Shown here one piece after another: positions 51,577-51,825 of a DNA stretch of 64,000 nt. Numbering within the stretch: position 1 is the first letter of the stretch; each line of letters starts with the position of its first letter. A program made the position numbers and the translations under genes. This DNA is from Escherichia coli. Lineage in GTDB: Bacteria; Pseudomonadota; Gammaproteobacteria; Enterobacterales; Enterobacteriaceae. The DNA lies in assembly GCF_044647545.1 (NCBI RefSeq), contig NZ_CP172818.1; one strand, written 5' to 3'. The notes beneath the pieces are model-generated. The model saw nothing but the letters and a program-made list of their open reading frames with translations, was not told where the DNA came from and made no database searches.

Positions 51577-51825
51577 CCGGCATCACTAATACTCAATATC
51601 CTTATACAACGTAAAATTACAGACACGATATCAACTCAAAACTACCACACAAATACTCACCACATACAACCCCTACAGCTAAAAACCCCCCCAAACTAAA
51701 AAACAACACAAAGAACAAGAAAACAAAACCGAACCCCAATGAAAAAAAAAATAACGCGCTGGAACAATTTTGCGATGCCAGCGCACACCGAACGTTGATT
51801 AAAGGAGCATTCAGATTTTATGCTC
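51577..51825. other. anomalous A/C-skewed low-complexity block between folA and apaH
   Basis: actcaaaactaccacacaaatactcaccacatacaacccctacagctaaaaacccccccaaactaaaaaacaacacaaagaacaagaaaacaaaaccgaaccccaatgaaaaaaaaaataacg; no ORF; same compositional flavour as 17250-18300. Confidence 0.85.

Follow-up and report, generated by a model that had tools for sequence, protein, structure and literature searches.

The A/C-rich folA-apaH spacer of an Escherichia coli record is almost certainly a letter-depleted ccdAB operon

We describe here a spacer of 272 bp between folA and apaH (51562-51833) in a stretch of 64,000 nucleotides of Escherichia coli DNA (hereafter the window). Judged by its sequence, this spacer is almost certainly the text of an ordinary chromosomal ccdAB operon from which most G and T and many C have been dropped, that is, a fault of record building and no genuine feature. 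We consider it very likely that the underlying DNA is an ordinary ccdO157-type ccdA-ccdB operon in its usual place, and that the window holds a damaged transcript of it, an artefact of record construction. The block would hence be a corrupted copy of a well-known operon, and neither a new element nor a replaced REP. A second, larger block in the same window is eroded in the same manner, and what the two blocks have in common is a process, not an element. The features concerned are collected in Table 1.

Table 1. Features of the window discussed in the text, with positions counted from its first letter
Feature	Position	Strand	Basis or remark
Collapsed IS186 scar, 27 nt: GGGTCTCCC, then A17, then T	15262..15288	+	K-12 IS186A insertion site
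Island with ompK, sulfatase pseudogene and IS1-IS1595-like ORF, eroded as the spacer is	15694..18480	+	Collinear with ~4.0 kb of FDAARGOS_497
Intact IS1 between nhaR and rpsT	21026..21794	-	Junctions exactly as for IS1A in K-12
folA (dihydrofolate reductase), intact, 159 aa	51082..51561	+	ORF list
Left boundary, nucleotide-scale mosaic of K-12-type (TATAGAATTT) and ccd-type (TAAG..., CCGGCATCAC) alleles	51562..51575	+	Three-way comparison of window, K-12 and FDAARGOS_497
ccd promoter region and ccdA 5' end, chiefly G lost	51576..51642	+	67 nt against 83 nt in the reference
Core, heavily eroded; remainder of ccdA and most of ccdB	51643..51751	+	109 nt against 449 nt
ccdB 3' end, almost intact	51752..51837	+	Megablast match resumes at 51752
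apaH, intact, 282 aa	51834..52682	-	ORF list; 3' end of FDAARGOS_497 type

The spacer and the ccdAB operon

The window begins at the K-12 origin, with thrL at position 190, and the spacer stands out in it by its composition. An earlier note had described an A/C-skewed block in a spacer of about 270 bp and had likened it to a larger block at 17250-18300, and both descriptions hold. The skew is extreme, with a GC skew of -0.80 and an AT skew of +0.78 (100-bp windows). In the core, G+T falls to 0.118 (110-bp window), while the mean of the whole 64 kb is 0.503 (sd 0.067). With 110-bp windows, values below 25% are reached at two places only, 17193-18330 and 51577-51798; the core string singled out earlier lies at 51634-51756. 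The folA sequence equals that of strain FDAARGOS_497 (NZ_CP033850.1), with a T7/T8 run ahead of the gene, at 51060, as the sole difference nearby. Between the two flanking genes, no ORF of at least 30 aa is found on the plus strand in 51572-51794, and neither the ccdA nor the ccdB reading frame survives.

Other genomes reveal what is usually located at this site. We used 5,426 complete E. coli genomes as reference set, with positions 51400-52000 as megablast query. The folA and apaH flanks were matched in all but one of them. In 2,022 genomes the matched length is 961 bp compared to 601 bp, and the annotation of the additional DNA names the CcdA antitoxin and the CcdB toxin. When the spacer was used by itself in a sensitive search, hits were limited to its two ends, in 2,026 genomes. 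A 632-bp folA-apaH spacer with ccdA and ccdB is thus present in 2,022-2,026 of the 5,426 complete genomes (~37%), among them FDAARGOS_497, in which ccdA (77 aa) and ccdB (104 aa) are intact. The region has been described as highly variable across strains, carrying either ccdO157 or REP (PMC3184786, PMC7167474). The statement in the earlier note that the K-12 spacer is short and contains a REP, and that no REP is recognisable here, agrees with our comparison: the MG1655 spacer has 77 bp with a REP-type palindrome, local alignment to it is limited to the 19 nt directly behind the folA stop and ends before the REP, and no inverted repeat was found inside the spacer of the window. Likewise, the supposition that the spacer is unlike that of other E. 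coli is confirmed, in that its core occurs in 0 of the 5,426 complete genomes. A 41-mer taken from the core had no match in GTDB representative genomes or JGI metagenome contigs, and six ORFs of the eroded blocks had none in a collection of 15 billion proteins.

The spacer reads as an ordered selection of the letters of the ccdAB operon. Its longest common subsequence with the 632-nt ccdAB spacer of FDAARGOS_497 comprises 271 of the 272 letters. Shuffled spacers reach 247.2±2.4 (maximum 253) and the reversed reference 249, which places the observed value about 10 sd above the shuffles. The alignment contains about 360 single-letter losses of 632 nt (~57% of letters) and almost no substitutions; TACGTGCAGATATCCGTGTATAC, for instance, has become TAC-T-CA-ATATCC-T-TATAC. 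In the sensitive search with the spacer, its flanks aligned with the ccdAB spacers (64% of its length at 85.7%). Deaminase hypermutation (G-to-A, T-to-C) is ruled out, because the block falls short of its template in length and the alignment is one of gaps, not of substitutions.

The losses differ strongly along the spacer. In the promoter region and ccdA 5' end, retention is complete for A (28/28) and C (18/18) and lower for T (16/20) and G (5/17), with 0 substitutions, and the ccdA start ATG is destroyed (ATCATGACTGC has become ATCAACTC). In the core, 61 of 120 A (51%), 35 of 109 C (32%), 8 of 117 T (7%) and 5 of 103 G (5%) remain. Taken alone, the core (51643-51751) holds too little information for a unique or base-by-base placement; its projection on A and C only scores 72.25 against ccdA, with shuffles at 64.0±1.8 (maximum 70, ~4.5 sd). 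At the 3' end, the last ~28 ccdB codons alone are recognisable. Here the frame is broken by three 1-nt losses at 51760-51765 and by an additional C at 51812, which splits these codons over two frames (translated as ...FCDASAHRTLIKGA and ...DFMLDGI*). The stop of the remnant, at 51835-51837, overlaps the apaH stop. This pattern would be explained by a deletion-only, base-selective process whose severity rises from left to right, with G lost first, then T, C and some A. Fidelity would return abruptly about 80 nt before apaH, and the text left behind would be A/C-rich and without coding capacity.

The same signature elsewhere in the window

The process proposed for the spacer would also have eroded the ompK/sulfatase island and collapsed an IS186 to 27 nt. 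In the large block almost no substitutions or insertions are seen and deletions are nearly exclusive. Overall, 1163 of 1166 A, 505 of 764 C (66%), 613 of 1173 T (52%) and 459 of 897 G (51%) are retained, the order of loss being T, then G, then C. The conservation of A is best seen between collinear anchors, where the counts in window and reference are 121 and 120, 466 and 466, and 34 and 35; in the well-aligned part of the block A loss amounts to about 1.7%. Erosion begins where genomes without the island (77%) lose homology. Along the block, T loss and G loss swing slowly and separately of each other, and better-preserved patches occur at 17439-17481 and 18292-18317. At 1.7 kb and 2.6 kb from the start of the block, collinear islands of good quality are found again, which rules out that insertion columns were stacked without realignment.

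T loss is equal across the three codon positions (25-30%), hence neither selection nor conservation shapes it, and a dropout driven by conservation or coding is ruled out. It does depend on the next two bases, with 41% loss before G and 10% before A, while preceding bases are without effect. Together, the equal loss at codon positions and the dependence on downstream bases indicate that the process is directional and blind to coding. A deterministic rule based on 7-mer context is not supported, 16 of 25 duplicated contexts agreeing in outcome. Nor is T loss higher in long T runs, and long T runs are not compressed. A noisy single-molecule read or a lost laser or colour channel is not supported either: insertions and substitutions are nearly absent, A is retained at about 98-100%, T runs are uncompressed, and the losses of T and G are independent.

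Two smaller sites belong to this picture. The IS186 scar lies where K-12 carries IS186A and has the same target duplication; the left copy of this duplication (GGGATCACTCCC) is damaged and the right copy is intact. The 27-nt scar was found in 0 of the 5,426 complete genomes. The intact IS1 has about 96% identity to IS1A, its flanks are 100% of the FDAARGOS_497 type, and it replaces a 6.5-kb fimbrial operon together with the espX1 region; the best match to this combination of IS1 and flanks among complete genomes is 96.6%. The type I toxin-antitoxin locus hokC/mokC/sokC, located directly between the scar of IS186 and the eroded island, is fully intact (15462-15614, minus strand; Rfam sok, 116.9 bits), and erosion is therefore not directed at toxin genes as such.

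A process common to both blocks had been proposed earlier, and the identical base-selective deletion signature on both templates bears this out; among the options then named, it is the artefact that is supported. The other options did not stand. Synthetic replacement of repeats is contradicted by the finding that this lineage has ccdAB, and not the K-12 REP, at the site, the block being an ordered subsequence of ccdAB. We give practically no credence to the idea that a single unusual low-complexity element or repeat family inserted twice and gave rise to both A-rich blocks. Their similar composition at two unlinked intergenic sites would be expected of such a family, but the search for common k-mers or units in spacer and large block yielded no more than composition-matched controls (k=12: 3 against 1.3±2.1; k=14: 0), and the templates are unrelated, each block being collinear with a different known resident sequence (ccdAB in one case, the ompK/sulfatase/IS1-like island in the other). 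Furthermore, no tandem repeats, terminal inverted repeats or target duplications were found in the spacer, and an Rfam scan of the 64-kb window gave 4 matches, of which 0 lie in 51500-51900 and 0 in 15700-18480.

Origin of the damage

The remainder of the window is of a very different quality. Outside the eroded places, only 3 SNPs and a few 1-nt indels separate it from FDAARGOS_497 over about 60 kb, and one stretch of 30 kb matches with a single mismatch. All indels of up to 45 nt are in the FDAARGOS_497 state and undamaged, including a 14-nt segment that is exclusive to FDAARGOS_497-type genomes. A mixture of two strains at about 50:50 is disfavoured by these intact strain-specific indels. 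The isolated differences comprise the T7 for T8 at 51060, the additional C at 51812, SNPs at 41640 and 59080, and an additional G at 60636 by which the final ~19 codons of espY1 are shifted out of frame; the SNP at 59080 is the K-12 allele, the other isolated differences are not. Compared to FDAARGOS_497, the terminator hairpin of yaaX-yaaA has two single-A deletions with a spacing of 10 nt (5531 and 5541); K-12 has about 100 bp of extra REP at this point. Erosion itself is confined to segments that are absent from K-12-type genomes, plus the collapsed IS186 that K-12 carries. At the boundaries (15694-15712, 18424-18480 and 51562-51575) K-12-type and island- or ccd-type alleles alternate in mosaics of a few nucleotides, and for the right island junction the closest natural match among the 5,426 genomes is 92.5%.

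This near identity weighs against the view that the DNA is physically as written, namely a decayed ccdAB remnant, natural or engineered, produced by a local mutational process that removes G and T. Such a remnant would have the correct locus and orientation, and it would sit in a region known to be variable, in which ccdO157 is defective or missing in many strains; natural decay of ccdO157 has been described as defective genes or as complete loss with REP instead (PMC3184786). However, about 360 independent 1-nt deletions and next to 0 substitutions in 632 nt would have to be reconciled with 3 SNPs in the adjoining ~60 kb compared to a strain with intact ccdAB. At this divergence a stretch of 632 nt should hold far less than one change, and natural decay is therefore excluded. 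The same signature moreover recurs in two segments that are not linked, and in an IS186, a codon-position effect is absent, and the block is in no other genome searched. To our knowledge, there is no mutational mechanism that deletes three base types while sparing the fourth. We regard a physical remnant as highly unlikely. An extension of the idea, in which a real, strand-directed process deletes G, T and then C singly while sparing A, and acts specifically on mobile or horizontally acquired DNA (ccdAB, the ompK island, IS186), strikes us as extremely improbable. If it were true, it would imply a base-selective deletion mechanism that is so far undescribed and a new way of inactivating foreign DNA.

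The most likely origin is a lossy consensus artefact, probably guided by K-12. The differences from a near-identical relative exceed what evolution could yield in the time implied by the flanks, and one signature is found at otherwise unrelated sites (island, IS186 scar, boundary mosaics, IS1 junctions) that are tied to template differences. The placement of the damage at structural differences between K-12-type and ST648-type genomes, together with the boundary mosaics, the IS sites and the clean small indels, fits a consensus built on, or polished against, a K-12 template. It seems plausible that data from an ST648-like isolate, as we infer it to be, were called with a K-12-like template as guide or polished against genomes without these segments. 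Small variants would then have been transferred faithfully and template-specific IS elements kept or left as scars, while large segments to which nothing in the template corresponds would have been rebuilt from weak evidence, letters being dropped and not substituted. Counting against this account, the few single-base differences that remain do not consistently show the K-12 allele. The gradient from left to right and the separate swings of T and G loss are not predicted in detail by any pipeline that we considered. We know of no specific tool that spares A and drops G and T, and of no published case with about 50-85% letter loss, sparing of A and a left-to-right gradient.

A purely in silico origin is a minor alternative that we hold to be rather unlikely. 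It could be simulated corruption, a fault in export or filtering by which letters are deleted and not masked, or a generative or sequence-to-sequence model that copies a real genome and skips letters when uncertain, and not assembly from reads; also in this case there would be no genuine feature. It would account for changes that are almost purely deletions, for the retention of about 98-100% of 1,166 A, for a directional severity with abrupt reset, for a loss that depends on downstream letters, for boundary blends unseen in 5,426 genomes, and for eroded text and ORFs that are missing from public contig and protein collections. However, the damage falls exactly where K-12-type and ST648-type genomes differ in large-scale structure, the IS186 and IS1 sites of K-12 among them, and this is predicted by a template-guided reconstruction and not by random corruption. 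Furthermore, a free-running generative model could not give 30 kb with one mismatch.

A separate record lends some context to the template-guided reading. RefSeq NZ_CM183442.1 (E. coli BHUCD01, a clinical isolate) has 4,641,498 bp compared to 4,641,652 bp in MG1655. Within its positions 1-50000 it displays K-12 gene coordinates and IS186 and IS1 at the K-12 places together with non-K-12 alleles. From these features the BHUCD01 chromosome looks like a K-12 reference-guided consensus.

Implications and comparison with known systems

The chief value of these observations is a warning about quality: low-complexity DNA that looks novel can consist of damaged copies of ordinary genes. Annotation of the record would miss a toxin-antitoxin operon as well as an outer-membrane protein gene and an IS element, and would add spurious ORFs with a high content of F, L and K. 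The signature lends itself easily to screening: at large structural variants with respect to K-12, the text diverges from that of closely related genomes by deletions only, and A is kept. Such a screen could flag other affected records, or further windows from the same source.

Among processes that alter DNA locally and in a base-specific manner, diversity-generating retroelements come to mind. They substitute at A and leave the length unchanged. The likeness ends with the local, base-specific change: here A is spared, deletions are seen instead, and neither a reverse transcriptase nor a template repeat is located nearby. Closer parallels are offered by assemblies that are reference-guided or polished by homology. 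Homopolish, for example, corrects indels only, from a pile-up of related genomes (PMC8011154). Like such assemblies, the window combines an indel-only effect with flawless core sequence, damage limited to segments that the template does not support, and persisting template IS elements. The extent of the loss, the sparing of A and the gradient distinguish it from known polishing artefacts.

With the K-12-type spacer, the spacer described here shares the flanking genes and the first 19 nt; it has 272 nt and not 77, it lacks the REP palindrome, and its remainder is apparently ccdAB-derived. From the ccdO157-type ccdAB operon it differs in that the ORFs are gone and letters are missing base-selectively, whereas the natural decay described for this operon is without letter-by-letter erosion. 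In contrast, locus, orientation and boundaries are those of ccdO157-type ccdAB, and the promoter region, the ccdA 5' end and the last ~85 nt of ccdB are still recognisable.
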